From an uncultured Planctomycetia bacterium (GTDB taxonomy: Bacteria; Omnitrophota; Gorgyraeia; Tantalellales; Tantalellaceae), in the NCBI GenBank assembly GCA_964527765.1, contig CAZGQR010000002.1:135701-199700 (forward strand): a DNA stretch of 64,000 bases, given 5' to 3'. The notes below the pieces were generated by a model. It saw only the letters and a list, made by a program, of their open reading frames with translations. It had not been told where the DNA came from and did no database searches. Every line of letters begins with the position of its first letter. Position 1 is the first letter of the stretch. Positions 15,608-58,608 of the stretch are shown in pieces. The translations under genes were made by a program, and so were the position numbers.

Positions 15608-18600
15608 ATGAGCGGTTTGCGCAAAAATCTTGTAAGAAGCATTGTTTTTATAACGGTCATTTCAATGGTCTGGCAAGGTGTTGTCTGGGCCGATCCGGGT
15701 GTTATCCAGCCGGATAGACTGCAGGTCAGGACCCTTTTTAGTCTCCCGGACATGGAAGAGCGGGTCTCTCCCCTGGTTTCCGGTTATGTCGTCAAAAGGC
15801 TTGCTGAATTTGAACGGGACCTAACGAAGCAACACCCTTCGCGCATCGAAGATGCGGCTAAGGAACTTATTGTACAGATCAAGAAAGACGCTGATATTCC
15901 GGAAGATCTTTTGAAAATCGCTGCTTCCTCCGCGAAAGGGGAACTGGTAGTAATCCTGGGTTCACATGCGGTGAGATATTACAATCACAGAAGAGAGGAC
16001 ACGCAGGATCCGGGTCCCGGCCGCAAGGTTATCAAAGACATGAAAATAGGGGGATATTTTTCAAGGCAAATACTTGAGGTTTCCGGTAAGGAATACTTCT
16101 CGGGCGGTGCCGAGGTCTACTGGTCCGAATGGGAAGTCGTTAATTCTAACACATTGCGCGCCAGGGGCCGGAAGGGCATAATCGCGAAACGCGGCCCGGA
16201 CGGGAAATTCGATATAATGAGCGGCGGGCTGCCGGTCGATCCGGTCGATAAAGAAGTAGAGGATCATATCCAGGCCTTGAAAGATAAAAATAAGAATGTC
16301 CGCATAGCCGCGATAGGGAATTTAGGCAAAATAGGCGATGAAAAGGCGGTTCAGCCCCTTATCAAGGTCTTGAGGAGTGCGGATTGGACTGTCCGCGGAG
16401 CTGCGGCAGTAGCTTTAGGCAAAATAGGCGATGAAAGAGCAGTATTGCCTCTTATCCAAGCCTTAAAAGATACGACTGCGTATGTCCGTTCCGCCGCCGC
16501 GGAAGCTTTGGGAAAAATAGGCGATAAAAAAGCAGTTGAGCCGCTTATCCAAGTTGCTTTAAAGGACCAGGAAAAACGTGTCCGCGGAACCGCGGCGGAA
16601 GCTTTAGGCGCAATAAATGATGAAAGTGCTGTCCAGTCTCTTATCCTGGCTTCAAAAGATGAAGATCTACATATCTGCGAAGCCGCAACGAAAGCTTTAG
16701 GCAAAATGGGAGAGCCGTCGGTTGAGTTGCTCGTCCAGGCCTTAAAAGATCGGGATGAACGTGTCCGCAAAACCGCGGCAGAGGCTTTAGGTGAAATAAA
16801 TGATGAAAGAGCAGTTCCGCATCTTGTCCGGGCTTTAAAAGATACGGAGTGGATTGTCCGTGGAAATGCAGCGATAGCTTTAGGTGAAATAGGTGACGAA
16901 AACGCGGTCCCGCTTCTTATCCGGACTTTAAGAGATGAAGATTCGTATGTCCGCTTTACTGCGGTGCATGCCTTGGGGCAAATAAGCGATGAAAGAGCAG
17001 TTAAACCTCTTATCCGGGCTTTAGAAGATGAAGATTTAGATGTCCGTGAAGCCGCAGCGGAAGCCTTGGGTAAGATCGGTAAACCGGCGATTGAGCTGCT
17101 TATCCAGGCTTTAACAAAAGATGAAAGTAAGAGTGTCCGCGCAGGTGCGGCGGAAGCCTTAGGCAAAATAGGCGATAAAAGCACGGTCCGGTTTCTGGCC
17201 CAGGCTTTAATAAAAGATGAAAATGAGCGTGTCCGCGAAGCCGCAGCGAAGGCCTTAGGCGAGGTGGGCGATAAAGAAGTAGCCGGGCTTCTGGTTCAAG
17301 TCCTTATCAAAAACGATGAAGACCCAGATGTTCGCAAAGCTGCGGTAGAAGCTTTAGGTAGGATAGGCGATGAAAAGGCAGTTCTGTCTCTTATCCGAAT
17401 TTTTAATGACAAGAGCATGGTGGGGTACATAGGGCGTGTTCCCGAAGCCATAATAAGATCCTTAGGCGAAATAGGCGGTGAAAAAGCGGCCGAGTTTCTT
17501 ATTCAGCTTTTGAAAGATGAAGATTATTCTGCTCGTATAATCGCGGCAGAAGCCTTGGGCAAAATAGGTGATGATAAAGCGACCCAGGTTCTTACCCGAA
17601 CTTCAAAACAGGATAAAGATATGTATGTCCGCCGAGCCGCAGCGGAAGCTCTGAAGGCAATACGTAATAAGGCCGCGGCAGCGGTAGAATACTTCTCAAG
17701 CGGTGCCGAGGTCAACTGGTCCGAATGGGAAGCCGTTGATTCTAATACGCTGCGCGCCAAAGGCCAGAAGGGCATAATCGCGAAACGCGGCCTGGACGGG
17801 AAATTCGATATAATGAGCGGCGGGCTTTTTGCTGATATCACCGCTTCGGATAACGAACCGGAAAATAATGAGCTAAACATTGCGAAGATCGTTCCTTCGG
17901 AAACTACCTGTCTTGGTAAGCCCACGGTGAGGCTTGATGTTGAGTTATTGGGAGGCGCGAAGGGACACTTCGTCGTTCCGGCCGGGACCTCAACAGGCGA
18001 GGACGAAGCCAGGACAGTGGGCGTTGAAAAAGCAGTGAAGAACCTGGCCGGGATCCATACTGAAGTCACGGATAGAGGATTGAAAGCCGATCAGCTGACG
18101 GATATTGCCCGGGTAATGCTGGAAATGGGCAAGGATAAACTGGGCGCTGAAGCAACCCTGTCTTATCAGATGGCTTCGGCCTGGGCTGCGGCCCGCCAGA
18201 GAGGTTTTGAGCCCTATGAATTTATCCGGGAGATCGCTCCTGATATTGCTTCCAGATCCGTTCCCAAAACGAAAATACAATATAACATCACCAACGGAGG
18301 GGAACATGCCGAAAATGATCTGAACATGCAGGAATTCATGGTTGTTCCTGTAGGCAGATCCACGGCGGAAGCGAACCGGATGTGTGATGAGATAGACAGG
18401 CAACTGGGGCTTATTTACCGGAGCCTGGGATTAAGCGCCGATCCCGATGATAAGGGAGTGGGAGAAAAACGCGGCAAGGAAGGCGGTTACAAGATCGCGG
18501 ACCTGACCAGCGAGAGATTAAAGGAGATCTACGCGAATCCCCCCGAAAAGAGCTTTGAATATCTGAACGTGGCCGAGTTAAAGAAACGCGGCAATATCGG

Positions 18601-19960
18601 TGTCCACGACTTTGTCCTGGAATGCATGGTCGCCGCCGTTAAAAACGCCGGTTACGTACCGTCGACTTCCGGGGAGATCGGGACCGTGGCTATTGCCCTG
18701 GACCCGGCTACCAGTTCCATGGTGGTCGAAGGACACAAGGACCTTTATCATTATGAAGGTGCGCAGATCGGCTCAAAAGATCTGGCCGGCATATTCGAAA
18801 GATGGGTTGCAAGATACCCCATAACTTCCATCGAGGACGGCATGGGTGAAAATGACTGGGACGGCTGGATGCGCCTTGTCGATAAAGTCGGCGACAAAGT
18901 CCTGTTGATCGGCGATGACAGTCTTGTGACCCAGGCGGCCCGCTTGACAAAGTTCATCGAGCTGCTCAGGGAGAAAGGGTATGTTGATAAAAAGACCGGT
19001 AAGGTTACCAGGAAGATCGGCATCCTGATCAAATTGAACCAGAATGGTTTTCTGATCACCGGCATAAATGATCCCGGTAAAGGTTACTTGGGAACTTTAG
19101 AGGTTATTCGCCTGGCGAAACGCCATGGGATCGAGGTTGTAGTATCTCATCGATCCAAGGAAGCGGAACCCGGGGAAAGGGAAGTCTCTATCGCTGAGCT
19201 TGCGGCCGGGGTGGATGCCTATGCCCTGAAGTCCGGCGATCATGTTCAGGGGATCCGAGCTGTCAAAGAGGACAGACTGGCCGAGATCGACAGGAGAGAA
19301 CGGGAACTTTTCGTGAAAAAGGTAATGGATAACGCCGAGACCGTGATACCCGGTCTTGTGGATGCGTTGATAACCGCTTCGGAAAAAGATAAAAAGGTCG
19401 TTCTGGCATTCGATACCGACCTTGGGGGAGGGCGGATGAACGTTCTGCTCGGAGAACTGATCGAGGCCATCTCCGGGCTTAAGGATAATAATGAAGATCT
19501 GAAGAGGTTCTTGGCCAATCTGTATATGATCAAAGGCAAAGGTAAGGATCTTGGTTCGAGGCTGGGCAATATAACCGATCCTTCCAAAGGTTCCGTGAAG
19601 AAAGAGAACGTTATAGTCGTAGCCAAGGGCTCAAATGAGGAATATTTCAAAAGCCTTAAAGGCACAGCTACCATGGCTATTGTCGACGACAGCGCGTTCC
19701 CGGAAACAGCTCACTTACCCTTGCTGGATGTTATGCTTCTGGCGGTCGGCAGTTATCTTGGGTGGAGCGAGAACAGACTGTATGAGATTTACAGCAGCAT
19801 TCCGGACGTTGAGTCTCTCAGTCTTGAGGAATATGTTAAATTGTGCAAGAAAGATCAAAGATCCCTGATAATAAAACTTGTGCCCAATGCCGTGCAGCTT
19901 GAGACAGAAAAGCGCAGGGAGATAATAGACGCAATAAAAGATATGCTTGCCAAGGCATAG
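15608..19960 (+). CDS. 1450-aa secreted/periplasmic (signal peptide) protein: N-terminal unknown region / 47-aa module / about 15 PBS-lyase-type HEAT repeats / second copy of the 47-aa module / complete enolase-like domain / shared C-terminal domain
   Basis: AAGGAGG RBS 8 nt upstream of the ATG; N-terminal [28 protein letters not shown] signal-like sequence; HEAT units [27 protein letters not shown]; enolase motifs (see the domain feature below). Confidence 0.85.
16091..16240 (+). repeat. Copy 1 of a ~150-bp intragenic direct repeat (about 90% nt identity to 17686-17835) encoding [47 protein letters not shown]
   Basis: Compared by eye with copy 2; long identical runs, e.g. gggcataatcgcgaaacgcggcc and gacgggaaattcgatataatgagcggcgggct. 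Confidence 0.8.
16255..17680 (+). repeat. HEAT repeat array (PBS lyase / HEAT_2 type, about 15 units of 31 aa) within the 1450-aa protein
   Basis: [73 protein letters not shown] and further units with a 93-nt period. Confidence 0.85.
17686..17835 (+). repeat. Copy 2 of the ~150-bp intragenic direct repeat ([47 protein letters not shown])
   Basis: See copy 1. The two copies bracket the HEAT array. Confidence 0.8.
17870..19200 (+). other. Enolase-like domain (full-length, ~440 aa) embedded in the 1450-aa protein; catalytic and metal-binding residues appear conserved
   Basis: Colinear with enolase: [12 protein letters not shown] (cf. PSGASTGxxEA), [23 protein letters not shown] (cf. INGGxHAxNxxDxQEFMI), [10 protein letters not shown] (cf. 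GDEGG), AIALDPATS (cf. AMDxAASE), [17 protein letters not shown] (cf. PIVSIEDxxxExDWxG), [10 protein letters not shown] (cf. LVGDDLxVT), ILIKLNQNG (cf. ILIKxNQIG), [13 protein letters not shown] (cf. ISHRSGETED, with an insertion), ALKSGD (cf. IKTG). Confidence 0.8.
19340..19957 (+). other. C-terminal ~205-aa domain of the 1450-aa protein, homologous to the giant-ORF C-terminus
   Basis: [112 protein letters not shown]. Confidence 0.8.
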
Positions 19961-23914: not shown

Positions 23915-24003
23915 TAGATAAAATCGACCGTGTCGTTACGAATGAAATTTCTTGAAACAAAAGTAGTTATGTGCTATTTTCGTTAAGGAACAGGAGAGAT
24001 ATC

Positions 24004-25428
24004 ATGCCGAAAATAAAGACGGAGATCCCCGAACAGTACCGCGGCGAGTTCCTGAAGCAGCAGATCGGATTTATTAAGGGCAGAGTGTATCTTTTCTGTG
24101 TATTGACCATAGCTATTTATTTTTCGGCATCAGTGGCGGGTATAATAATAAATCCGCGCGCGTTCAAGCTCCTTGAACTTTCCATCGGCCTGGCTCTTGC
24201 GGCAGGCGCTGTTATCATCGTTTATGTCAACTACAGGGTCAGGACCCTCCGCGCCACAAAGGCCAATGCCTATTTATTTACCGCGCTTCTCCTGGCGCTC
24301 TTGACAAAACTGGGCATCGGTTATGCCGATATCCCGCTGGTCAGCGCTTCGCTCTTTGTCTTCAGTCTTTTTCTCGTGGCCATGACCATACCCTGGACGC
24401 CTTTCGAAGTGACCCCTATATGGGCCATGCACGTGATCGCCTTCACGGTTTCTTTTCTTGGTGTCAAGTATTTGCCGGAAGTGGTCGGGGAGGATTTCAG
24501 TCTGAGGGAATATCTTGACGGGATCCTGTTCCTGACGATGGCTTTCTGTCTATGCCTGGTGGTGCGGAGAAAGGAGACCGCCAGGGATATCGAGAACTTC
24601 GTGCTCCTCAAGGAGGTCGAGGACAAGAACGCTCAGATGAACAGGGAGCTCGAGTGGGCCACGCGCATCCATAAGACCATCATTCCTGATTCCACCAGTA
24701 CCGATAAAGTCGATATCGCGGTAGATTATCTTCCGGTATATTATATCGGGGGAGATTATGTGAAGTTCGACTTCCAGGACCACGACAGGCTGGTCTTTAT
24801 TATAAGCGATATCACCGGTCACGGAGTGCCGGCGGCCCTGCTCGTGAACAGGATGCATACGGAGTTTGAACGGCTTGCGAAAGAGAATAAAGAACCGGGG
24901 CTTCTGCTCAAGGAACTCAATGAGTTCATCAAGAGGGATTTCGAGGGGTCCGACATGTATCTCAGCGCTTTTTGCGGGCTTCTGGACCTTAAAAGAGCGC
25001 AGCTTTTATATTCCAATTACGGTCATCCGCCGCAGTACGTTTACAGCGAGAAAGAAGGCCGCATACACCGGCTTTCCGCCCAGACAAGCCTGCTGGGGAT
25101 ACCCGTGGATGATGAGAACGTCTATCAGGACGATATGAGGATCGGCGAAAAGGACAGGGTGCTGCTTTTCACCGACGGCATCATCGAGGCTGTCGGCCGC
25201 GGAGGGGAAGAGTACGGGAGCGAAAGGCTGGAGGATTTTTTGAGGAAACACCATGACCTGCCGCCTGAAGAGTTCAATGCGAACCTGCTGAAGGAACTGA
25301 ATGCGTTCAAGGATGAAAGTTTCAGGGACGATATATGCATCATGAGCATAGGCATAAAGCCTCACCCGTCGCTTTTTGAACTCGGCAGCCAGATCTTCAA
25401 ATATCAGCATAAGGAAGCCGAGGCTTGA
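24004..25428 (+). CDS. Membrane-anchored PP2C-family (SpoIIE/RsbU-like) serine phosphatase with an N-terminal polytopic membrane domain
   Basis: GGAACAGGAGAG RBS before ATG 24004 (the ORF track starts earlier at 23971); about 6 hydrophobic helices followed by GGDYVKFDF..FIISDITGHGVPAALL..LFTDGIIEA.., a SpoIIE phosphatase signature. Confidence 0.75.
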   Translation: MPKIKTEIPEQYRGEFLKQQIGFIKGRVYLFCVLTIAIYFSASVAGIIINPRAFKLLELSIGLALAAGAVIIVYVNYRVRTLRATKANAYLFTALLLALLTKLGIGYADIPLVSASLFVFSLFLVAMTIPWTPFEVTPIWAMHVIAFTVSFLGVKYLPEVVGEDFSLREYLDGILFLTMAFCLCLVVRRKETARDIENFVLLKEVEDKNAQMNRELEWATRIHKTIIPDSTSTDKVDIAVDYLPVYYIGGDYVKFDFQDHDRLVFIISDITGHGVPAALLVNRMHTEFERLAKENKEPGLLLKELNEFIKRDFEGSDMYLSAFCGLLDLKRAQLLYSNYGHPPQYVYSEKEGRIHRLSAQTSLLGIPVDDENVYQDDMRIGEKDRVLLFTDGIIEAVGRGGEEYGSERLEDFLRKHHDLPPEEFNANLLKELNAFKDESFRDDICIMSIGIKPHPSLFELGSQIFKYQHKEAEA

Positions 25429-38660: not shown

Positions 38661-38858
38661 ATGGGAAAGGTTTTGAGCTTATTGATCGGAGCGGTCGTGG
38701 CGCTTGTCGGGTTGATCCTTCTTATTGCCTGGTGGTATGAACTTTTATTCATTCTAAGGGGAGTGGTACCTCTAATGCTTATACTGGGCGGAGTGATAGC
38801 CGTCATAGCGGGTTTCAGCGAGCTCAAGGATGTCCTGAAAAAGAAGGAAGGAAAATAA
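38661..38858 (+). CDS. Hypothetical small membrane protein (65 aa, two TM helices)
   Basis: GGAGGTGA RBS; MGKVLSLLIGAVVALVGLILLIAWWYELLFILRGVVPLMLILGGVIAVIAGF. Confidence 0.5.
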   Translation: MGKVLSLLIGAVVALVGLILLIAWWYELLFILRGVVPLMLILGGVIAVIAGFSELKDVLKKKEGK

Positions 38859-46832: not shown

Positions 46833-47237
46833 ATGAGGACAATGATCGCCAACGACAATCATCTTTTAAAAGAAGCGAGCAAGAAACTTATAAATGCACT
46901 TAAAAGAAAAGGCGTCAACGAGGACGTTATTTTTGATATCCATGTCGGGTTTGAAGAGGCCCTTCGTAACGCCATGATACACGGGAATAAGATGGATTCC
47001 TCCAAGAAAGTCGCGATCGAGACGGAGATGGAGGGGAACACGGTGGTGATACGTGTTGAGGATGAAGGAGAAGGGTTCGATCCGGAAACGCTTCCGGACC
47101 CCACGCTGAACGAGAACTTGCTCAAAGAAGGCGGGCGCGGCGTGTATCTCATAAAGCATCTCATGGATGAAGTGAAGTATGAGAACGGCGGCAGAAGGGT
47201 CGTCATGAAAAAATACCTGGACAGGAAACATCTATAA
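46833..47237 (+). CDS. Anti-sigma-factor-type serine protein kinase (RsbW/SpoIIAB-like GHKL ATPase)
   Basis: ..EALRNAMIHGNKMDSSKKVAIE..VVIRVEDEGEGFDPE..GGRGVYLIKHLMDEV.. Confidence 0.75.
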   Translation: MRTMIANDNHLLKEASKKLINALKRKGVNEDVIFDIHVGFEEALRNAMIHGNKMDSSKKVAIETEMEGNTVVIRVEDEGEGFDPETLPDPTLNENLLKEGGRGVYLIKHLMDEVKYENGGRRVVMKKYLDRKHL

Positions 47238-47582
47238 ATGGAGGCGGATATGCAGATCAAGCTGGAGGAAAAAAGCGGGATATCGATCTTCAGGGTAGCC
47301 GGCGATATTGATATCAACAGCTCCCCGGAGGTGAAAAAATTCCTTGATAAGACGATATCACCGAAGAACAACAGGGTCGTGATAAACCTGAAAGAAGTGG
47401 GTTACGTGGACAGCTCCGGCCTTGCCACTCTCGTCGAGATCCTGAAAAACCTGCGCGCGTACGGAGGCACGCTGAAGCTGACCAACCTTTCCAATAAGGT
47501 CAGGGGGCTTTTCGAGATAACCAAACTGGACAAACTGTTCGATATCTCGGCGCATGAAGATGATGCTCTGAGTTCTTTCTGA
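47238..47582 (+). CDS. STAS-domain anti-sigma-factor antagonist (RsbV/SpoIIAA-like; could also be a MlaB-like STAS partner of the downstream Mla ATPase). An alternative start at 47250 has a better GGAGG spacing.
   Basis: ..FRVAGDIDINSSPEVKKFLDK..VVINLKEVGYVDSSGLATLVEIL..GGTLKLTNLSNKVRGLFEITKLDKLF.. Confidence 0.8.
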   Translation: MEADMQIKLEEKSGISIFRVAGDIDINSSPEVKKFLDKTISPKNNRVVINLKEVGYVDSSGLATLVEILKNLRAYGGTLKLTNLSNKVRGLFEITKLDKLFDISAHEDDALSSF

Positions 47583-47600
47583 GCGGGGGATGACTGAAAA

Positions 47601-48398
47601 ATGGAAAACCCGGTAGCGATCACAGGAAAAATAGCGATTGATCTTATAAAACACATACGGGATATACTGTCGCTTCTTTTCAACACCGTCTGGTGGATAG
47701 TCGTGGGCCCGTTCAAGGGCAAGGAGGCCAGCAGGCAGAATATCTTTCAGCAGCTGGTGTTCGCCGGAGTCCAGTCCGTTATTATAGTATTTTTTATATC
47801 CCTTTTCACGGGTATAGTCATAGCCATGCAAAGCGCCTATCAGCTGAGGCAGCTGGGCGCCATCATATATGTGGCTCCCATGGTAAGCATAAGCATGGCC
47901 AGGGAACTTGGGCCCGTTTTCACGGCTCTGGTGGTCGCCGGCAGGGTAGGATCGGCCATAGCCGCGGAACTGGGGACCATGAAGGTCTCCGAGCAGATAG
48001 AGGCCCTCGAGACCATCGCGCTCGATCCCGTGAGGTTCCTCGTAGTCCCGCGCTTTATCGCGCTTCTGGTGATGCTTCCGTGCCTGACGATCATGAGCGA
48101 TATCATAGGGATATTGGGGGGCTTTATTGTCGGGGTGTTTAACCTCCAGCTTAATCCTTACAGATATTTGAGATTTTCGTTCGATCTCATGACCTGGAAG
48201 GACGTGTGGACCGGGCTGATAAAAAGCGGGCTGTTCGCGGTCATTATTTCCATGATCGCGTGCTATGTGGGGCTCGAGACCCGGGGCGGCGCCGAAGGGG
48301 TCGGAAAATCAACAACGCTCAGCGTTGTCATCAGTTTCATATTGATAGTCCTTTTTGATTGCATACTGACAGGGCTGTTCTATTTCTCTAATATGTAA
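47601..48398 (+). CDS. mlaE: ABC transporter permease MlaE (phospholipid/lipid asymmetry maintenance family)
   Basis: ..FQQLVFAGVQSVIIVFFISLFTGIVIAMQSAYQLRQLGA.., ..EALETIALDPVRFLVVPRF.. Confidence 0.85.
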   Translation: MENPVAITGKIAIDLIKHIRDILSLLFNTVWWIVVGPFKGKEASRQNIFQQLVFAGVQSVIIVFFISLFTGIVIAMQSAYQLRQLGAIIYVAPMVSISMARELGPVFTALVVAGRVGSAIAAELGTMKVSEQIEALETIALDPVRFLVVPRFIALLVMLPCLTIMSDIIGILGGFIVGVFNLQLNPYRYLRFSFDLMTWKDVWTGLIKSGLFAVIISMIACYVGLETRGGAEGVGKSTTLSVVISFILIVLFDCILTGLFYFSNM

Positions 48399-48409
48399 GC
48401 GGTTCAAAC

Positions 48410-49210
48410 ATGGAAAAGAAGGAAGTCGTCATAGCGGTAAGGGACCTGGTGAAAAAATTCGGGGACAGGGTCATCCTCAACGGCGTCGATCTTGAGATAT
48501 TCAGGGGGGAGACGTTCGTTATCATGGGCGGTTCCGGCTGCGGCAAAAGCACGCTGCTCAGGCATATGATCGGGAATCTGAAGCCCTCTTCCGGCAGGGT
48601 CGCTCTGCTCGGCGAGGATATAACCGACCTTTACGGAGCCGAGCTGGACGATGTCCGCAAGAAGATCGGCATGTCGTTCCAGTCATCCGCGCTTTTCGAC
48701 TCCATGACGGTCGGCGAGAACGTGAGCCTGCCGCTTCGGGAACACACAAAGCTCTCAAAGAGCGTTATAGATATCATAGTTACGATGAAACTGGAGCTCG
48801 TCGGTCTCAGGGGGTTCGAGGATCTCATGCCCAGCGAGCTTTCCGGAGGCATGAAAAAAAGAGTGGGGCTGGCCAGGGCCATAGCGATGGACCCGCAGAT
48901 CATTTTTTATGACGAACCCACCGCCGGCCTGGACCCGATCGTGGCGGCCGTGATAGACAAGCTGATCATCGATCTTTCAAAGAAGCTGTCCGTTACCAGT
49001 GTCGTGGTCACGCATGACATGAAGAGCGTCATGACCGTGGGGGACAGGATAGCCATGCTGTACGAAGGAAAGATCCTTGAGGTCGGCACGCCCGACGAGA
49101 TAAAAAATTCCAGCAACGAAATGGTCCAGCAGTTCATAAAAGGCAAGCACGACGGGCCTATACGGTTTTTTCAGCAAAAAGATGATTATCTGGAGCATTT
49201 GACCCGATAA
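48410..49210 (+). CDS. mlaF: ABC transporter ATP-binding protein MlaF
   Basis: Walker A GGSGCGKST, signature LSGGMKKRVGLARA, Walker B IIFYDEPTAGLD. Confidence 0.9.
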   Translation: MEKKEVVIAVRDLVKKFGDRVILNGVDLEIFRGETFVIMGGSGCGKSTLLRHMIGNLKPSSGRVALLGEDITDLYGAELDDVRKKIGMSFQSSALFDSMTVGENVSLPLREHTKLSKSVIDIIVTMKLELVGLRGFEDLMPSELSGGMKKRVGLARAIAMDPQIIFYDEPTAGLDPIVAAVIDKLIIDLSKKLSVTSVVVTHDMKSVMTVGDRIAMLYEGKILEVGTPDEIKNSSNEMVQQFIKGKHDGPIRFFQQKDDYLEHLTR

Positions 49211-49227
49211 ACAAAAGGAGAATCAAA

Positions 49228-49821
49228 ATGAGACTTTCCAATGAGATAAAAGCGGGCCTGGTCGTTGTAGTGGCGATCATCATCGCTGCCATGTTTTTCC
49301 TTAAGACCGCGACTTTTTACCACCGTAAATACGCCCTGAAGACCTTTTTCACGTACGCGGGGGACCTTAAGACCGACGCCGTGGTGAAACTTGCGGGCAT
49401 CGAAGTGGGAAGGGTAAAGGTCATAGACTTTGTCTATGACCGGGCGACGAAGGTAAAATGCGTGCTCGAACTTGATACGGACGCCAGGGTCCGGGCGGAT
49501 TCCATCGCCTATATCGGGACCGCGGGGTTTGTCGGGGACGCGTACGTGGGCCTCACGCCGGGGACATCTGAGGAATTTCTCAAGGCCGGCAGTGTCGTGG
49601 AAAGCGAAGACCCCGTTCAGATGCGCCTTGTCTGGAAAAAGGCGGAAAATATAGCGGACAATCTTGACGGGATCCTCACCGAGGTAAGGTCCCTGGTCGT
49701 TGACAACAGGCAGAACCTGGATAACATAATCGTCAACCTGGAAGCGACCACCGAGAATTTCAAGGAGTTCAGCGCGGATGTAAAACAACATCCCTGGAAA
49801 CTTTTGTTCAAGGGGGAATAG
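49228..49821 (+). CDS. mlaD: MCE-domain substrate-binding protein MlaD
   Basis: N-terminal TM followed by ..AGDLKTDAVVKLAGIEVGRVKVIDF.. (MCE domain). Confidence 0.8.
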   Translation: MRLSNEIKAGLVVVVAIIIAAMFFLKTATFYHRKYALKTFFTYAGDLKTDAVVKLAGIEVGRVKVIDFVYDRATKVKCVLELDTDARVRADSIAYIGTAGFVGDAYVGLTPGTSEEFLKAGSVVESEDPVQMRLVWKKAENIADNLDGILTEVRSLVVDNRQNLDNIIVNLEATTENFKEFSADVKQHPWKLLFKGE

Positions 49822-49831
49822 GGGGTTCGAC

Positions 49832-50605
49832 ATGAAAAAATTCCTGATCTTACTGGTATGCGTTATGTTCACGGCATGCCTGAACCAGACCGCTTTCAGC
49901 GCTGAAGAAACGGTTATCGTTATCTCTTATGCCGGCGACGTAAAGGTCGTGCCCGCGGGCCAGGTCAAGCCCCTGGCGTGCAGACCGGGCATGCTCCTTT
50001 CCGAAGGCACCCGTATCATCACCGGGGAGGAGTCGTATGTGGAAATAGCTTTTGACAAGCCCAGGAGCAATATCTTAAAGGTCAAGGAGAACAGCGAGGT
50101 GGTCCTTAAGTTCAACGATTCCGACAAGGTCGAGCTTATAGACGGAAAAGTATTCGTCCTGCTGCGGGACCTCAAAAGAGGAAGCGCCTTTCGCGTGAGG
50201 ACGCCGTGCGCCGTGTGCGGCGCGCGCGGGACGGGCTGGGGCGTGATAACGGACAGCAAGATCACGGATGTGGCTGTTTTTGAGGCAAAAGTGTTCGTCA
50301 GGGGCCTTAAGAAAGACGGGTCAGCCATGGATGAGGAATACTGGATCGAAAAGGGGTTCGAGAGGAAGGTAAAAAAGTTTGAATCCCCTGGGGAGCTGTT
50401 AAAGGTCTCCGATGAAAGGCTGGCCGAGATGGAAGCGGAATTCGGCCTTGATGCAGGCAAGAAAAAGAGCAGGGAGAATAAATTTAAAGGTTTCGGCAAG
50501 AACAACACCATGCGGGAAGAACAGATGGAAAGTATCCTGGAACGTAAAGATGACGCACGGCTCGATAAGATGCGGGAAAAAAGAAGCAGCGGCGGAAAAA
50601 GATAA
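49832..50605 (+). CDS. Secreted FecR-domain protein, paralog 1
   Basis: Signal peptide MKKFLILLVCVMFTACLNQTAFSA; ..SYAGDVKVVPAGQ..PGMLLSEGTRIITGEESYVEIAFDK..LKVKENSEVVL..VRTPCAVCGARGTGW.. (FecR-like beta-sandwich). Confidence 0.65.
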   Translation: MKKFLILLVCVMFTACLNQTAFSAEETVIVISYAGDVKVVPAGQVKPLACRPGMLLSEGTRIITGEESYVEIAFDKPRSNILKVKENSEVVLKFNDSDKVELIDGKVFVLLRDLKRGSAFRVRTPCAVCGARGTGWGVITDSKITDVAVFEAKVFVRGLKKDGSAMDEEYWIEKGFERKVKKFESPGELLKVSDERLAEMEAEFGLDAGKKKSRENKFKGFGKNNTMREEQMESILERKDDARLDKMREKRSSGGKR

Positions 50606-50671
50606 AGAAAAAACCGTAAGAATAATATATATAATATGTTAGGTGAAACACTGGCTTTTGTATCTCTTATC

Positions 50672-50700
50672 TTGTCTTCTCTCCAGGCCTGGGTTATACT
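50672..50700 (+). promoter_or_regulatory. Candidate sigma70-like promoter (TTGTCT-N17-TATACT) for FecR paralog 2
   Basis: ttgtct at 50672-50677, tatact at 50695-50700; downstream GGGGAGGG RBS before ATG 50765. Confidence 0.35.
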
Positions 50701-50764
50701 TTAAATGTATAGTATTAAAATTCAAGTTGCCGGGCTTTTAACGCAATAAACAGGGGAGGGAAAA

Positions 50765-51748
50765 ATGAAAAAGTTCTTAACTATAATATTATGTCTTACA
50801 TTTGCCGGATATCTGGCCGGCGCCGCGCAGGCTTTGGAAAGAACCGTGAGAGTCGCGTCGTATGCCGGTGACGTAAAGATCGTGCCCGTCGGCGCGGCAA
50901 AAGGCGAAGCATGCCGGGCCGGCATGAAACTCAAAGCAGGCACCCGGGTCATCACCGGGGAAGAGGCTTCCGTCGAAGTGACCTTTGACAAGCCGGGGCG
51001 TAACGTTTTGAAGATAAAAGAGAACAGCGAGGTGGTGATAAAACTGGAAGATGCCGACAGGATCGATCTTGTCGACGGCGAGATCATTACCGTGCTGCGG
51101 GACCTTAAAAGAGGTGAAACGTTCCGCGTGAGGACACCCTGCGCCACGTGCGGCGCGCGGGGAACCGGCTGGAACACGAAAACGGACAAGAACATCACTA
51201 ACGTGGCTGTTTTCGACGGCGAGATCTTTGTCCGGGGCATCAAGAAGGACGGGTCCGCCATGGATGAAGAGTACCGGGTAAAGAGGGGGTTCGAAAGAAA
51301 GATAAGGAAGTTCGAACGCCCCGCGAAGATGGAAAAGATATCCGAAGCCAGGTTTTCCAGGATGGAAAGGGAAGTCGAAAGGCTGGTAAAACCAAAAGGC
51401 GAGCTTGGGGAAAAACCGGCCAGACCCTCGGTAATCACTCCTCGAAAACCGGAGGGGGTAGCGGAAAAGAAAGCCGAAGTAACAGAGAGAAGAGAGAAGG
51501 TAACGGAAAAGAGAGCCGAGATGGCGGAAAGAAAAGAGAAGGTAGCGGAAAAGAAAGCCGAAATAGCGGAGAGGAAAGAAAGGGTAGCGGAAAAGAAAGA
51601 AAAAATTATTGAAAAGCGCGAAAAAATCGAAAAGATGATAGAAAAAGGCGCGGCTATGAGAGAAGAGCGCAGGGAAAGCGTCATCGAGCGCAAGGATGAC
51701 GAAAGGATCGACAAGATCGGCGAAAGCCGTATTAATACCGACGGATAA
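50765..51748 (+). CDS. Secreted FecR-domain protein, paralog 2, with a C-terminal Glu/Lys/Arg-rich repetitive coiled-coil tail
   Basis: ~55% identity to paralog 1 over the FecR region (..SYAGDVKIVPVG..RTPCATCGARGTGW..); tail AEKKAEVTERREKVTEKRAEMAERKEKVAEKKAEIAERKERVAEKKEKIIEKREKIEK. Confidence 0.65.
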   Translation: MKKFLTIILCLTFAGYLAGAAQALERTVRVASYAGDVKIVPVGAAKGEACRAGMKLKAGTRVITGEEASVEVTFDKPGRNVLKIKENSEVVIKLEDADRIDLVDGEIITVLRDLKRGETFRVRTPCATCGARGTGWNTKTDKNITNVAVFDGEIFVRGIKKDGSAMDEEYRVKRGFERKIRKFERPAKMEKISEARFSRMEREVERLVKPKGELGEKPARPSVITPRKPEGVAEKKAEVTERREKVTEKRAEMAERKEKVAEKKAEIAERKERVAEKKEKIIEKREKIEKMIEKGAAMREERRESVIERKDDERIDKIGESRINTDG

Positions 51749-51754
51749 TATCAC

Positions 51755-52837
51755 ATGGCCGGAAAGGAGATGCGTTTGCCCTCAAAATATTTTCGAGCGT
51801 CGAAGATCTTCATTTTTCTGTTCATATTCCTGACAGCATCTCTATGGAGCTTTTCACCGTCGTTCGCTATTGACGAAGAAGTGATCGACAGGTACCCGTC
51901 CGCCGAACCTCCCCCTCAGGAAATGGAAAAAAGGGAAGAGAAGGAACACGTCTTTTATAAGCCGAAAGAGCGCCTTGAGGTCACCGCGTTCGCGGATGTG
52001 CAGCAGGGATACGATAACAACGTGGACCTTGACTCGGAACACCACAGGGACGGTTTCCTTCAGGGAACGGCGAACCTGGATGTCGGCTATGAGGCAATGG
52101 ACAACCTGAAGCTGAAGGGCGGCATTGATATCTTTGAGACGATCTATTACAAGTATAACGTCAACAACCTGTCGGATATCTCGCCCTACGCGGGATTCGA
52201 TCTTGAGATCAGCCCGGAGATCATCTCCCGCAATCGTTTTATTTTTGATTATTTTGCGTACCCGAACGAGAAGGAGAGCACGTATGCGGGGATCGCGCTC
52301 ACGTCTTACCTTCGCCACTATATCTCGGAGGATATCTATCATGAGGGAGGGTTTGAGTACCTGAGGCGCTGGTACCCGGACCGGAAGAGATTTCTCTCAA
52401 CTGCCGTAAAAGGCAATAAAGACCGCGTCGACAGCCGCTACAGGGTCAAGTACAATGTCGGCGTTTATACGGAGCGTTTTCTCGTAAAGGTGAGCAACCA
52501 GCTGAGCTATAACGATTCGAATGATCTGTACCAGGACTATTACGATTACTGGATGTACAGGCTGAAACCGTCGGTGATGTTCTTTTTCACGGATAAGTTT
52601 TACACGGACGTCAGCCTTATCTACAAATATACATGGTACAGGAACCGCACCACCACGCAGGACGCCAGCAAGAAAGAGCGCGATAATACCTACATGCTGA
52701 ACACGTCGCTATATTACGATATTTCAAAGAACATCACGTTCGGCGTCACGTATTCTTACAGCGAGAACGTGTCCAACGATCCGTTCCAGAAATATTCCGA
52801 CAGTATCGTGTCAGGCGGGATCTATTACAGTTTCTGA
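51755..52837 (+). CDS. Putative outer-membrane beta-barrel protein (hypothetical)
   Basis: N-terminal hydrophobic signal-like segment IFIFLFIFLTASLWSFSPSFA; Tyr/Asn-rich alternating amphipathic strands; C-terminal ..SGGIYYSF aromatic terminus typical of OMPs. Confidence 0.45.
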   Translation: MAGKEMRLPSKYFRASKIFIFLFIFLTASLWSFSPSFAIDEEVIDRYPSAEPPPQEMEKREEKEHVFYKPKERLEVTAFADVQQGYDNNVDLDSEHHRDGFLQGTANLDVGYEAMDNLKLKGGIDIFETIYYKYNVNNLSDISPYAGFDLEISPEIISRNRFIFDYFAYPNEKESTYAGIALTSYLRHYISEDIYHEGGFEYLRRWYPDRKRFLSTAVKGNKDRVDSRYRVKYNVGVYTERFLVKVSNQLSYNDSNDLYQDYYDYWMYRLKPSVMFFFTDKFYTDVSLIYKYTWYRNRTTTQDASKKERDNTYMLNTSLYYDISKNITFGVTYSYSENVSNDPFQKYSDSIVSGGIYYSF

Positions 52838-54753
52838 TGAAAAAGTTCGATACGATAAAATTAATCTACTTTGTCCTGGCGATTTTCCTTGCGGCCCTTT
52901 TTCTTTTCTTCTCCTACACAAGGGTATTCGATGAGTTTGAATACAGCACGCTCGATTTCAGATACAAGTCAAGACCACCGCAGGCCGTAAACAAGGACAT
53001 AGTCATCATCGAGGTAGGGGACGATTCCATAGAAAAAATAAGCAAGTGGCCGTTCCCCCGCAATTATCACGCGCTTTTGATCAAGGCCCTTAAGACCTCG
53101 GGGGCGGAGACCATTGTTTTTGATATATTCTTCAGCGAGGAAAAAGAAGGGGATGAGAAGTTCGCGGCGGCGGTCAGGGAGGCCGGCGAAGTGTACCTGC
53201 CGTATGTTTTCGATCTGGACAGGGACAGCACCGACAAAACGCGGGTCCATGCCGCCGGTTATACCGCACCCCTGATCGATGTGCTGGGAAAAGCGGCCAA
53301 GGGCACGGGATTTATAAATGTCGAGCCCGATATCGACGGCAAGATACGCAGGATACCTCCTTTTATCGAATACAAGGGGGTGTTCTATCCCCACCTGACG
53401 GTCCTGGTCGCGTTGAACCATTTCGGCTACAGGTTTGACCAGGTAAAGATAGTCCCCGGCGACAAGATGATCGCCGGGCAAGATGTGAGGATCCCGCTGA
53501 ACGAGGATTCTTCGATGCTGGTCAATTATCCCGCGACATGGGGCAAGGCGTTCCGCCACTATTCCTACGTTGATATACTGCAGTCTTATCTGGCCGATGT
53601 GACGGGCCAGGAACCCACGGTGGACCTGGGCGAGCTCAAGGACACGGTATGTTTTGTCGGGCTGACCGCGACCGCGGCCCCGGACGCTCACCCGTCCCCG
53701 ACGGAACCGCTGTATCCGGGGATCGGCGTACATACCAGTATCTACAACAGCATCATCGAAAAGGCCTTCCTGCGGAGACTGAACAAGTGGTGGAACCTTC
53801 TTATACTTGTCATCATGTGGCTCATCACCGGGTACATTACGCAGAAGAGCCGCAAACGGTTCGCTATATTGTCCATTTTGCTTGTCATGATACTGTACGT
53901 TCTTGTTGCCATGGTATTTTTCTGGCCGTTCGGCATATGGATAGATGTTTTTTATCCGCTCGTGAGCATAGGCGCCATTTACGCTATTTTTACGTTCAAG
54001 AAGTACCTGACCGAGACCCAGAAAAGGGAACTTATAGAAAAAGAACTTAACATAGCGAAAGATATCCAGCAGAGCTTCCTGCCAACGGAGATCCCGGCCA
54101 TAGGGGGCATGGATATAAGCGTCAGGATGGATACGGCGCGTCAGGTCGGAGGCGATCTTTATGATATAGTCCAGCTGGACGGCAAGAAGCTGGGGATCAT
54201 GATAGGGGATGTCTCCGGCAAAGGGGTCCCCGCCGCCCTTTACATGGCCAGGGTGGTAAGCGTGTTCAAGACTTTTGTCAGGGAAGGCACCGCGGCCGGC
54301 GTTCTTAAGAGCGTTAACGACCGGCTCGTGGGCGAAGGCGGGAGCAATCTCTTCGTCACGCTCACGTTCATGGTGTTCGATACGGAATCGGAAAGCATCA
54401 CTTTTGCCATCGGCGGGCATCTGCCGACCATCCTGGTGGAGCCCGACGGGAACGTGGAGCTCCTTGACGTGTCGGAAGGCTTTCCGCTGGGGCTGATAGA
54501 AGGGGATTTTTCCGAGGTCAAGCGGTACTTTAAGGCGGGAAGCACTTTTATTTTTTATACTGACGGCGTGACCGAAGCCATGAACGCCAGGGAAGAGATG
54601 TTCGGTCAGGACCGTCTTGTCGAACTGGCCAAAGGGCTGAGGGGGCTTTCGGCCAGGGAAGCCGTATCCGCCATACATGATGCGGTGTCGGCCTTTGCGG
54701 GAAAAGCGAAACAGCACGACGATATTACCGTGATAGCGGTAAAGTACAGATAA
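52837..54753 (+). CDS. CHASE2 extracytoplasmic sensor domain / TM region / PP2C-family (SpoIIE) serine phosphatase
   Basis: N-terminal TM, ~300-aa periplasmic region with CHASE2-like features (..IVIIEVGDDSIEK..WPFPRNYHA.. GFINVEPDIDGKIRRIP..), 3 TM helices, then GGDLYDIV..IMIGDVSGKGVPAALYMARV..FYTDGVTEA..ITVIAVKY. Confidence 0.75.
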   Translation: MKKFDTIKLIYFVLAIFLAALFLFFSYTRVFDEFEYSTLDFRYKSRPPQAVNKDIVIIEVGDDSIEKISKWPFPRNYHALLIKALKTSGAETIVFDIFFSEEKEGDEKFAAAVREAGEVYLPYVFDLDRDSTDKTRVHAAGYTAPLIDVLGKAAKGTGFINVEPDIDGKIRRIPPFIEYKGVFYPHLTVLVALNHFGYRFDQVKIVPGDKMIAGQDVRIPLNEDSSMLVNYPATWGKAFRHYSYVDILQSYLADVTGQEPTVDLGELKDTVCFVGLTATAAPDAHPSPTEPLYPGIGVHTSIYNSIIEKAFLRRLNKWWNLLILVIMWLITGYITQKSRKRFAILSILLVMILYVLVAMVFFWPFGIWIDVFYPLVSIGAIYAIFTFKKYLTETQKRELIEKELNIAKDIQQSFLPTEIPAIGGMDISVRMDTARQVGGDLYDIVQLDGKKLGIMIGDVSGKGVPAALYMARVVSVFKTFVREGTAAGVLKSVNDRLVGEGGSNLFVTLTFMVFDTESESITFAIGGHLPTILVEPDGNVELLDVSEGFPLGLIEGDFSEVKRYFKAGSTFIFYTDGVTEAMNAREEMFGQDRLVELAKGLRGLSAREAVSAIHDAVSAFAGKAKQHDDITVIAVKYR

Positions 54754-56455: not shown

Positions 56456-56543
56456 GCCGGAGTGGCGGAATTGGCAGACGCGCTGGACTCAAAATCCAGT
56501 GGGGTATCCCCCCATGTGGGTTCGACTCCCACCTCCGGCACCA
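56456..56543 (+). tRNA. tRNA-Leu (anticodon CAA), type II with a long variable arm, 3' CCA encoded
   Basis: Acceptor gccggag/ctccggc, anticodon stem ctgga/tccag with loop cuCAAaa, variable hairpin tgggg-tat-cccc, T-arm gtggg-ttcgact-cccac, discriminator A, CCA. Confidence 0.85.
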
Positions 56544-58532: not shown

Positions 58533-58608
58533 GGGGCTGTAGCTCAGCTGGGAGAGCGCGTGCATGGCATGCATGAGGTCAGGGGTTCGATCCCCCTCAG
58601 CTCCACCA
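58533..58608 (+). tRNA. tRNA-Ala (anticodon GGC), 3' CCA encoded
   Basis: Acceptor ggggctg/cagctcc with G3:U70, D-arm gctc-agctgggaga-gagc, anticodon stem cgtgc/gcatg with loop auGGCau, T-arm gtcag-gggttcgatccc-ctcag. Confidence 0.85.

Follow-up and report, generated by a model that had tools for sequence, protein, structure and literature searches.

We describe a block of nine genes that may place an ATP-binding cassette (ABC) lipid transporter under the control of a partner-switching relay. The block lies at positions 46833–54753 of a 64,000-nucleotide stretch of DNA from an uncultured Omnitrophota bacterium (GenBank assembly GCA_964527765.1, contig CAZGQR010000002.1, positions 135,701 to 199,700), which we call the window. 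It encodes an RsbW-like serine kinase, a single-domain STAS protein, the transporter proteins MlaE, MlaF and MlaD, two secreted FecR-domain proteins, a probable outer-membrane beta-barrel and a membrane phosphatase with a CHASE2 sensor and a PP2C domain. From the kinase gene to the phosphatase gene, the block is a conserved unit in Omnitrophota. We propose that the STAS protein is a switchable, MlaB-like subunit and that MlaFED is the relay's output, and we give this reading a probability of about one half. Mla as the output, the binding of the STAS protein to MlaF and the direction of the effect may each hold; gene context is what points to them.

How Mla is regulated is an open question. The study of the MlaFB structure proposed that MlaB might be phosphorylated at a conserved Thr and raised phosphoregulation as an open possibility, with no kinase known (PMC7367683). 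The block offers a natural test case: across the sampled Omnitrophota lineages, MlaEFD is genetically tied to a kinase, a phosphatase and an RsbV-type STAS protein. The phosphoregulation hypothesis can therefore be tested with four small proteins that are soluble or can be truncated.

In the mechanism that we propose, the unphosphorylated STAS protein would take the role of MlaB. It would bind MlaF through its helical face and promote the assembly or activity of MlaFED. The RsbW-like kinase would phosphorylate Ser55 in the DSSGL motif, and the STAS protein would then be released and transport turned down. When the periplasmic CHASE2 domain detects an envelope signal, the phosphatase would strip the phosphate and transport would go up. 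The secreted FecR-domain proteins and the barrel, where present, would modulate the CHASE2 input. Taken to its full extent, this would be a natural phospho-switchable "MlaB", whose attachment to MlaF is set by a dedicated serine kinase and by a phosphatase that senses the periplasm. An envelope signal would then gate lipid transport between the membranes at the post-translational level, and the barrel and FecR proteins might pass such a signal from the outer membrane on to CHASE2. We hold this fuller picture tentatively, at somewhat less than even odds.

Conservation of the gene block

The nine genes are intact and co-directional, as judged from the list of open reading frames and from Pfam and NCBIfam scans (Table 1). 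They are spaced 0–18 nt apart, and the sole wide gap (159 nt) separates the two FecR genes. An initial annotation, made by a model from the letters alone, had listed the same nine genes, and the domain scans placed all of them on the + strand at or near the coordinates it gave, most of which were kept. A promoter scan of the region gave counts not above shuffled expectation, and a terminator scan found no + strand terminator at an intergenic position.

A scan with the CHASE2-PP2C protein, using one genome per species, gave 22 relatives at 47–77% identity. Their labels are Candidatus Omnitrophota, Ca. Makaraimicrobium thalassicum and, in some third-party assemblies, "uncultured Planctomycetia". 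The Omnitrophota labels agree with the setting of the Planctomycetes-Verrucomicrobia-Chlamydiae (PVC) type that had been suggested from the letters. Every locus with enough flank in these 22 species has the same order: RsbW, STAS, MlaE, MlaF, MlaD, zero to two FecR genes, an optional barrel gene and CHASE2-PP2C. The flanks are common to these loci as well, with MnmE, FolE, DUF212, LysM/YkuD and AccA upstream and iPGM downstream. Because these housekeeping flanks are shared too, function and synteny are inseparable from the close relatives alone.

The kinase led to more distant relatives. A search of 1.8 billion representative proteins gave 3 matches at E<=1e-30, followed by a continuum at 40–46% identity. 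Profiles from the distant kinase relatives were traced to database entries, and 10 genomic contexts were looked up. The block was present in 9 of these 10 contexts, whose kinases are 40–50% identical to ours. The tenth, from Tepidisphaeraceae (Planctomycetota), has a STAS gene and then the kinase gene, which is the canonical order, then a rhomboid gene, and no Mla. Of the kinase relatives that we examined from other phyla, the one in this plain STAS-RsbW pair is the closest. Scanning metagenomes with a block-type STAS profile added 80 further loci.

The counts below come from about 105 related loci, each count being restricted to contigs long enough to judge; the loci are related to each other, a few are from the same contig, and they are not independent trials. 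The kinase gene is immediately upstream of the STAS gene in 89 of 89 loci, and MlaE is immediately downstream of it in 75 of 75. MlaE, MlaF and MlaD follow the STAS gene in that order in 54/54 loci. CHASE2-PP2C was found within 8.5 kb downstream of the STAS gene in 37 of 39 loci, the exceptions being L036 and L106.

AccA lies upstream of the block in 55 of 62 loci, and the block order is unchanged in the seven loci without it. Four of the seven were examined and have four different upstream contexts: type II secretion/type IV pilus genes in L028; trehalose-synthesis genes and TatD in L034; thiamine and NifU/NifS genes in L036; and, at 5077–9539 of L116, genes for a histidine kinase, a response regulator with GGDEF, BacA (undecaprenyl-diphosphatase), DedA/VTT and an Ysc84/EipA-like protein. 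The L116 neighbourhood is envelope-themed, unlike the usual AccA flank. A radical-SAM gene lies upstream in L031. The taxonomy of L028, L031, L034 and L036 was assigned by similarity alone. The downstream flanks vary too; in L028, SpoU and a second SpoIIE gene follow the block.

Because the order is kept where AccA is missing, the block is a unit and not residual synteny. The flanks change while the block order is kept, and conservation therefore starts and ends where the block does, at RsbW and at PP2C. The gene order had been expected to be conserved in relatives; it holds far beyond the close ones and is independent of the flanking genes.

Table 1. Genes of the block, with positions in the window
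Gene product	Position	Strand	Length (aa)	Domain or model match
RsbW/SpoIIAB-type GHKL serine kinase	46833..47237	+	134	HATPase_c_2 (PF13581) E=3e-30
Single-domain STAS protein, RsbV/SpoIIAA type	47250..47582	+	110	STAS E=6e-24
MlaE permease	47601..48398	+	265	PF02405 E=1e-78
MlaF ABC ATPase	48410..49210	+	266	MlaF model E=8e-77
MlaD, short form	49228..49821	+	197	PF02470 E=2e-14
Secreted FecR-domain protein 1	49832..50605	+	257	PF04773 E=7e-10, residues 61-154
Secreted FecR-domain protein 2, tandem paralog	50765..51748	+	327	PF04773 E=4e-10
Probable outer-membrane beta-barrel	51755..52837	+	360	no Pfam match for window protein
CHASE2-PP2C membrane sensor phosphatase	52837..54753	+	638	CHASE2 (PF05226) E=5e-52; SpoIIE (PF07228) E=8e-48

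Relay proteins and the Mla transporter

The best named model matches of the kinase in Pfam and NCBIfam are RsbW and SpoIIAB. Its closest solved homolog in a PDB search is B. subtilis RsbW (6M36, E=1e-11). The N-box EEALRNAMIHGN, the G1 box EDEGxGF and the G2 box GGRGVYL are kept in 17 orthologs.

The STAS protein scores 87.6 bits against TIGR00377, the anti-sigma-antagonist superfamily (cutoff 53.45). Its gene had been given a start at 47238. The true start is almost certainly the ATG at 47250, because a GGAGG stands 5 nt upstream, because the resulting length fits the homologs (of the 120 closest, nearly all have 110 aa) and because public gene calls use this start for the identical sequence. 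An identical copy of the protein is found on 18 public contigs. The DSSGL motif is at 47409–47423 and not at ~47405–47420 as first given. The predicted phospho-acceptor is Ser55 (codon 47412–47414), right after the Asp. The initial annotation had made its model depend on such a serine, which is present and invariant in the orthologs examined; the longer motif [VI]DSSGLATL[VI]E is kept in every block-carrying lineage.

Ser55 corresponds in alignments to the Ser directly behind the Asp of SpoIIAA (DSSGL) and RsbV (DSTGL), and to T52, the Thr in this place in E. coli MlaB. The reference sequences of SpoIIAA, SpoIIAB, RsbV, E. coli MlaB and MlaF, RpoD and RpoE were entered by hand, and the key alignments to them are backed by tool-derived PDB alignments. 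An AlphaFold2 model of the STAS protein, built with 48 homologs, has a predicted local distance difference test score (pLDDT) of 92 and places Ser55 at the start of a helix (residues 55–70). The best fold matches of the model are SpoIIAA and RsbV, both from kinase complexes, and TM1442, at template-modelling (TM) scores of 0.8-0.9 (SpoIIAA 0.90).

The phosphatase has a predicted transmembrane helix at residues 7–25, a periplasmic CHASE2 domain at residues 19–333, a hydrophobic region at about 318–391 and a cytoplasmic PP2C domain. The metal-binding PP2C motifs GGDLYD, GDVSGKG, YTDGVTEA and QHDDIT are at least 95% kept in 26 orthologs, with a few motif positions at 70–95%. The best solved homologs are P. 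aeruginosa RssB, Rv1364c and SpoIIE. By sequence, the block thus carries what characterises a partner switch: a STAS protein with an acceptor residue, a small HATPase_c_2 kinase with N, G1 and G2 boxes, and a PP2C of the SpoIIE/RsbU type. From what is known of these families, the kinase very likely phosphorylates Ser55 and the PP2C domain very likely reverses the reaction.

MlaE scores 245.6 bits against TIGR00056 (cutoff 212.2) and has 5 hydrophobic segments in a simple hydropathy scan. In the PDB, MlaF matches best to its namesakes from P. aeruginosa, A. baumannii and E. coli (E=5e-71 to 2e-61). It carries the LSGGM signature, and the PDB alignment spans the C-terminal extension DGPIRF....DYL, which is kept in 29 block MlaFs. 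Against the NCBIfam MlaF equivalog it scores 258, below the cutoff of 441. MlaD consists of an N-terminal transmembrane helix (residues 7–25) and one MCE domain, and its match to TIGR04430 (E=3e-22) is below cutoff. Pfam searches found no MlaC or MlaA (PF05494, PF04333) in the block or in 11 looked-up contexts. These two proteins are sparse outside Proteobacteria (PMC10665443).

In E. coli MlaFEDB, the helical face of the STAS subunit MlaB contacts MlaF, and T52 sits in the middle of this interface (PMC7367683). MlaB is required for stable association of MlaF, and the phosphomimetic T52E weakens MlaB-MlaF binding (PMC7367683). The face that bears the acceptor is both the kinase-binding face of SpoIIAA/RsbV and the MlaF-binding face of MlaB, and so a switch between kinase and MlaF is sterically plausible. 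Phosphorylation would release the STAS protein because Ser55 is at the centre of the proposed MlaF-binding face.

We favour Mla as the output for several reasons besides the steric one. The relay genes were never seen apart from mlaEFD in the sampled loci. The STAS gene stands directly next to mlaE. A STAS subunit, MlaB, is already part of the known Mla system (PMC7367683). Finally, MlaB has been defined operationally as a STAS match in synteny with mla genes (PMC10665443), and the STAS protein of the block satisfies this definition (NF033618, E=7e-7).

As a further, exploratory argument we compared rates, making pairwise divergence matrices from 30 loci and regressing out the AccA distance (partial Mantel, permutation). 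The residual divergence of the STAS protein correlated with that of MlaD, MlaE and MlaF (partial r 0.36, 0.30 and 0.24, respectively; permutation p<=0.005) and showed no correlation with that of RsbW (-0.08). The correlation between kinase and phosphatase was strong (0.73). These correlations are a hint only, because partial Mantel tests are liberal.

Several points weigh against Mla as the output. The rate comparison is exploratory: its partial Mantel result is weak, and phylogenetic artefacts arise easily in such a test. By sequence and predicted fold, the STAS protein is RsbV/SpoIIAA-like rather than MlaB-like. MlaB chains match its model only from rank 36, at TM scores of 0.59–0.68; it scores 29.6 bits against the NCBIfam MlaB model NF033618 (cutoff 90); and no MlaB is among its PDB sequence matches. 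Known MlaB proteins are mutually <20% identical (PMC7367683), and this dissimilarity therefore carries limited weight. MlaEFD alone is regarded as the ancestral, functional and self-sufficient core of Mla (PMC10665443). Veillonella MlaF retains a C-terminal extension without any MlaB (PMC10665443). The extension in block MlaFs is therefore not diagnostic of a STAS partner, and we dropped it as a sign of one. For Chlamydia, the reported target of RsbW is the primary sigma factor, which is encoded elsewhere (PMC8256260). Additional PP2C genes (at 23971–25428 of the window and in L028, L034 and L032) and an additional STAS gene (in L029) suggest a wider network in these genomes. Finally, genes are densely packed in one direction throughout the region, and the AccA and iPGM flanks are common to most loci.

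FecR-domain proteins, barrel and the input side

The two FecR-domain proteins are 59% identical over 204 aa, and both have signal-like hydrophobic segments at the N-terminus. Their best named matches are the secreted FecR-domain proteins LipL45 and Lsa33 of Leptospira, and they are LipL45/COG4254-like. Neither has a cytoplasmic anti-sigma domain; the FecR equivalog gave 16 bits against a cutoff of 385, and no extracytoplasmic function (ECF) sigma factor is found in the window. An anti-sigma FecR of the FecI-FecR-FecA type is ruled out by this score, the signal-like start, the missing anti-sigma domain and the missing ECF sigma factor. The tail of FecR protein 2 is a Lys/Glu-rich repeat. It is encoded by a 42-bp tandem repeat at 51457–51600 (3.4 copies, 83% matches, a unit of 14 residues), which accounts for the strong purine skew at 50–52 kb.

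The 360-aa protein between FecR protein 2 and the phosphatase is a probable outer-membrane beta-barrel, judging from its sequence. The public gene call starts it at 51776. As for its earlier assignment to the outer membrane, three features agree with it: a signal-like N-terminus, a C-terminal ...YYSF and, in 14 of 17 orthologs, sub-threshold matches to BBP2_2 (best E=4e-6), with OMP_b-brl matches in 7 of the 17. The support is weak. A profile search of the family against PDB gave nothing meaningful, and the AlphaFold2 model from a single sequence was unusable (pLDDT 36).

We counted the genes downstream of MlaD in block loci with at least 7.8 kb downstream of the STAS gene. Two FecR genes, the barrel gene and the phosphatase gene are present in 12 loci, and one FecR gene with barrel and phosphatase in 10. 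Two loci have one FecR gene and the phosphatase without the barrel, and 13 have the phosphatase with neither FecR nor barrel. In one locus (L036), one FecR gene and the barrel gene follow MlaD and no CHASE2-PP2C is found within 7 kb. The FecR and barrel genes are thus facultative and absent in about one third of the lineages.

Secreted FecR-domain proteins encoded beside CHASE2 sensors have been described in Burkholderia and Pseudomonas (PMC5192318). The initial annotation had called them recurrent CHASE2 neighbours and had placed them upstream of CHASE2 in the signal path. The neighbour pattern stands, and it supports the idea of a co-sensor. An obligatory input they are not, because they are missing in about one third of the lineages that retain the remainder.

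The FecR and barrel genes might instead belong to the transporter, as the periplasmic and outer-membrane end of the lipid route, and CHASE2 would then sense something else. This alternative concerns only the input part and is compatible with a relay that acts on MlaFED. It arises because these genes are dispensable in one third of the lineages, because of the layout of L036, in which they stay with MlaD, and because the block has a short MlaD and no MlaC or MlaA in any block context looked up. Long MlaD proteins that include an outer-membrane barrel domain occur in other phyla; PVC groups lack this domain (PMC10665443). In addition, the FecR and barrel genes always lie between mlaD and the PP2C gene, and the FecR tails are long Lys/Glu-rich repeats. 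On the other hand, the 13 lineages without FecR or barrel retain MlaEFD and the phosphatase, and no lipid-binding domain is detectable in the FecR and barrel proteins. Proteobacterial CHASE2 sensors also have secreted FecR-domain neighbours without Mla in the operon (PMC5192318). We lean against this alternative, and keep the FecR proteins and barrel as candidate modulators of CHASE2.

Other outputs, known systems and surrounding genes

The output may lie elsewhere. In that case the kinase would sequester a distant sigma factor, possibly the primary one, or another regulator, and the mla genes would at most be co-expressed. This keeps some weight because the STAS protein is RsbV/SpoIIAA-like: in sequence and fold, its nearest counterparts and those of the kinase are the sigma-controlling pairs RsbV/RsbW and SpoIIAA/SpoIIAB. 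The Chlamydia Rsb system also has no adjacent sigma gene, and its RsbW is reported to control sigma-66 (PMC8256260). MlaEFD is able to function without a STAS subunit (PMC10665443), and the Planctomycetota relative of the kinase belongs to a plain STAS-RsbW pair. Against this stands the gene context: the kinase-STAS pair was never apart from MlaEFD in about 105 loci, even with both flanks changed, and the order is kinase, STAS, mlaE, where the canonical one is antagonist, kinase, sigma. The divergence of the STAS protein, which is weak evidence, follows the Mla proteins and not the kinase.

Nor was a sigma gene found in the contexts tested, of about 20 kb. With E. coli RpoD regions 2–4 and RpoE as queries, tblastn, whose ECF sensitivity is limited, detected neither a sigma-70 nor an ECF sigma homolog, whether in the window or in the 34 related loci searched. 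Sigma domains are likewise missing from the Pfam lists of the 11 contexts that were looked up. The absence of a nearby sigma factor, as first noted from the letters, thus extends to the relatives tested. We regard an output elsewhere as rather unlikely. Were the output a distant sigma factor, the block would still document a conserved envelope-signalling operon in an uncultured phylum.

The roles could also be exchanged. The RsbW-like protein would then be an "anti-MlaF" that inhibits or tethers the ATPase, and the unphosphorylated STAS protein would capture the kinase and free the transporter. This keeps the RsbW-type logic of two alternative partners, with MlaF replacing sigma, and gene context speaks for it as much as for a STAS subunit on MlaF. 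After control for AccA, the divergence of RsbW correlates with that of MlaF (partial r 0.32, p ~0.002) no less well than the divergence of the STAS protein does. However, we know of no precedent for a GHKL anti-sigma kinase bound to an ABC ATPase. The gene abutting mlaE is that of the STAS protein and not that of the kinase, and the documented Mla partner is a STAS protein (PMC7367683). We consider exchanged roles improbable.

Least probable is that the signalling and mla genes are independent and adjacent only by inherited synteny in a compact genome: most loci do have a long collinear array (MnmE, FolE, DUF212, LysM/YkuD, AccA, block, iPGM) of largely unrelated housekeeping genes, and the promoter and terminator scans were uninformative, but the block is intact where both flanks are replaced and AccA and iPGM are gone (four upstream contexts examined), insertions and deletions (FecR, barrel, extra PP2C) are confined to its interior or end, and its components make a complete, coherent pathway.

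The three relay proteins of the block are of the same types as in the B. subtilis modules RsbU-RsbV-RsbW-sigmaB and SpoIIE-SpoIIAA-SpoIIAB-sigmaF, which also give the best sequence and fold matches. Compared with these modules, the block has no sigma gene, the order kinase-STAS-mlaEFD and a CHASE2 membrane phosphatase, and it lies within a lipid-transporter operon. Kinase/PP2C-switched STAS proteins that act on a non-sigma effector occur in P. aeruginosa (SiaABCD and HsbR/HsbA), Bordetella (BtrUVW) and Vibrio (SypE/SypA). These systems are partly summarised in PMC8256260. Their outputs are diguanylate cyclases, secretion and biofilm functions, whereas the proposed output of the block is an ABC lipid transporter.

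MlaE, MlaF (with LSGGM and the extension) and the short MlaD are homologous to those of E. coli, A. baumannii and P. aeruginosa MlaFEDB, which also have a STAS gene in the operon, and the acceptor position of the block aligns with MlaB T52 at the MlaF interface (PMC7367683). Unlike MlaB, the STAS protein of the block is of the RsbV type, with 110 aa and an extra C-terminal helix, and its gene precedes mlaE instead of closing the operon. The block further differs from MlaFEDB in that it includes a kinase and a phosphatase of its own and lacks mlaC and mlaA.

The Rsb system of the PVC-related Chlamydia trachomatis (RsbU, RsbV1/V2, RsbW) has a membrane-anchored PP2C with a periplasmic sensor and no adjacent alternative sigma factor (PMC8256260). 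Its genes are dispersed, its sensor is not CHASE2 and its reported target is sigma-66, whereas the block is one unit with Mla. In the "BiofilmReg" operons of Burkholderia and P. aeruginosa (PA4035/PA4036 type), LysM/FecR genes accompany CHASE2 histidine kinases, so that a secreted FecR protein stands beside CHASE2 as in the block (PMC5192318). There, the output is a histidine kinase and response regulator and FecR comes with LysM; the block has a PP2C, Lys/Glu-rich FecR tails and a barrel protein.

In the open literature we found no ABC lipid transporter as an output of partner switching, no partner switching with MlaE or MlaF, and no report that combines Omnitrophota with any of these systems. 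A review of STAS-only proteins does not mention MlaB. The components and both logics, non-sigma partner switching and STAS regulation of MlaF, are known; their combination in a single conserved block, together with a dedicated kinase and a CHASE2 phosphatase, seems not to have been described before. If our reading is true, an ABC lipid transporter joins the non-sigma outputs of partner switching, as the first ABC transporter shown to be the output of such a relay, and the open question of MlaB phosphoregulation receives a direct answer. CHASE2 would also gain a physiological context in envelope and lipid homeostasis. To our knowledge, this sensor domain has no known ligand.

The second membrane PP2C of the window (23971–25428, +, 485 aa) has about 6–7 hydrophobic segments followed by a SpoIIE domain (E=2e-42), and could be another input to the same STAS protein. 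In related loci, a SpoIIE-only phosphatase gene follows CHASE2-PP2C in L028 (17943–19295) and L034 (16475–17833), and L032 has a second, tandem CHASE2-PP2C gene at 16546–18189. In a Bdellovibrionales locus (L026, 9314–15029), a gene for a CHASE2-adenylate/guanylate cyclase of 911 aa is divergent beside a STAS gene, upstream of an LptD-like gene and with no Mla. Here too, CHASE2 and STAS are paired close to an envelope lipid gene.

The flanks of the block also vary in small ways. The GTP cyclohydrolase I gene of L033 (5494–7041) is interrupted by a LAGLIDADG domain and encodes 515 aa, compared with 188 aa in the window; the insert resembles an intein by sequence. In L027, a LAGLIDADG gene stands on its own after the block. 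A small PilZ-domain gene lies between FolE and the DUF212 gene in the distant lineages L027, L029, L032 and L033 (about 7100–7560) and is absent from the window.

Elsewhere in the window, a 65-aa product at 38661–38858 (+) is labelled MamI, a magnetosome protein, in the public annotation of the identical contig; it had no match in our Pfam scan, and the label is unconfirmed. A giant open reading frame of 5166 aa at 58–15558 (+) has SF1-helicase-like AAA_11/AAA_12, GNAT acetyltransferase and Ser/Thr protein kinase domains in its first 3000 aa, the part that was scanned. Genes of giant size have been reported as a trait of Omnitrophota (bioRxiv 10.1101/2023.11.21.568195; PMC10066038). Directly 3′ of it, at 15608–19960 (+), a gene of 1450 codons encodes about ten HEAT repeats together with an enolase-like N-terminal and TIM-barrel region, an unusual fusion. 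Two tRNA genes lie downstream of the block. tRNA-Ala(GGC) is at 58533–58608, after an ATP-sulfurylase/APS-kinase fusion gene. tRNA-Leu(CAA), at 56456–56543 directly after iPGM, ends the long co-directional array that holds the block.

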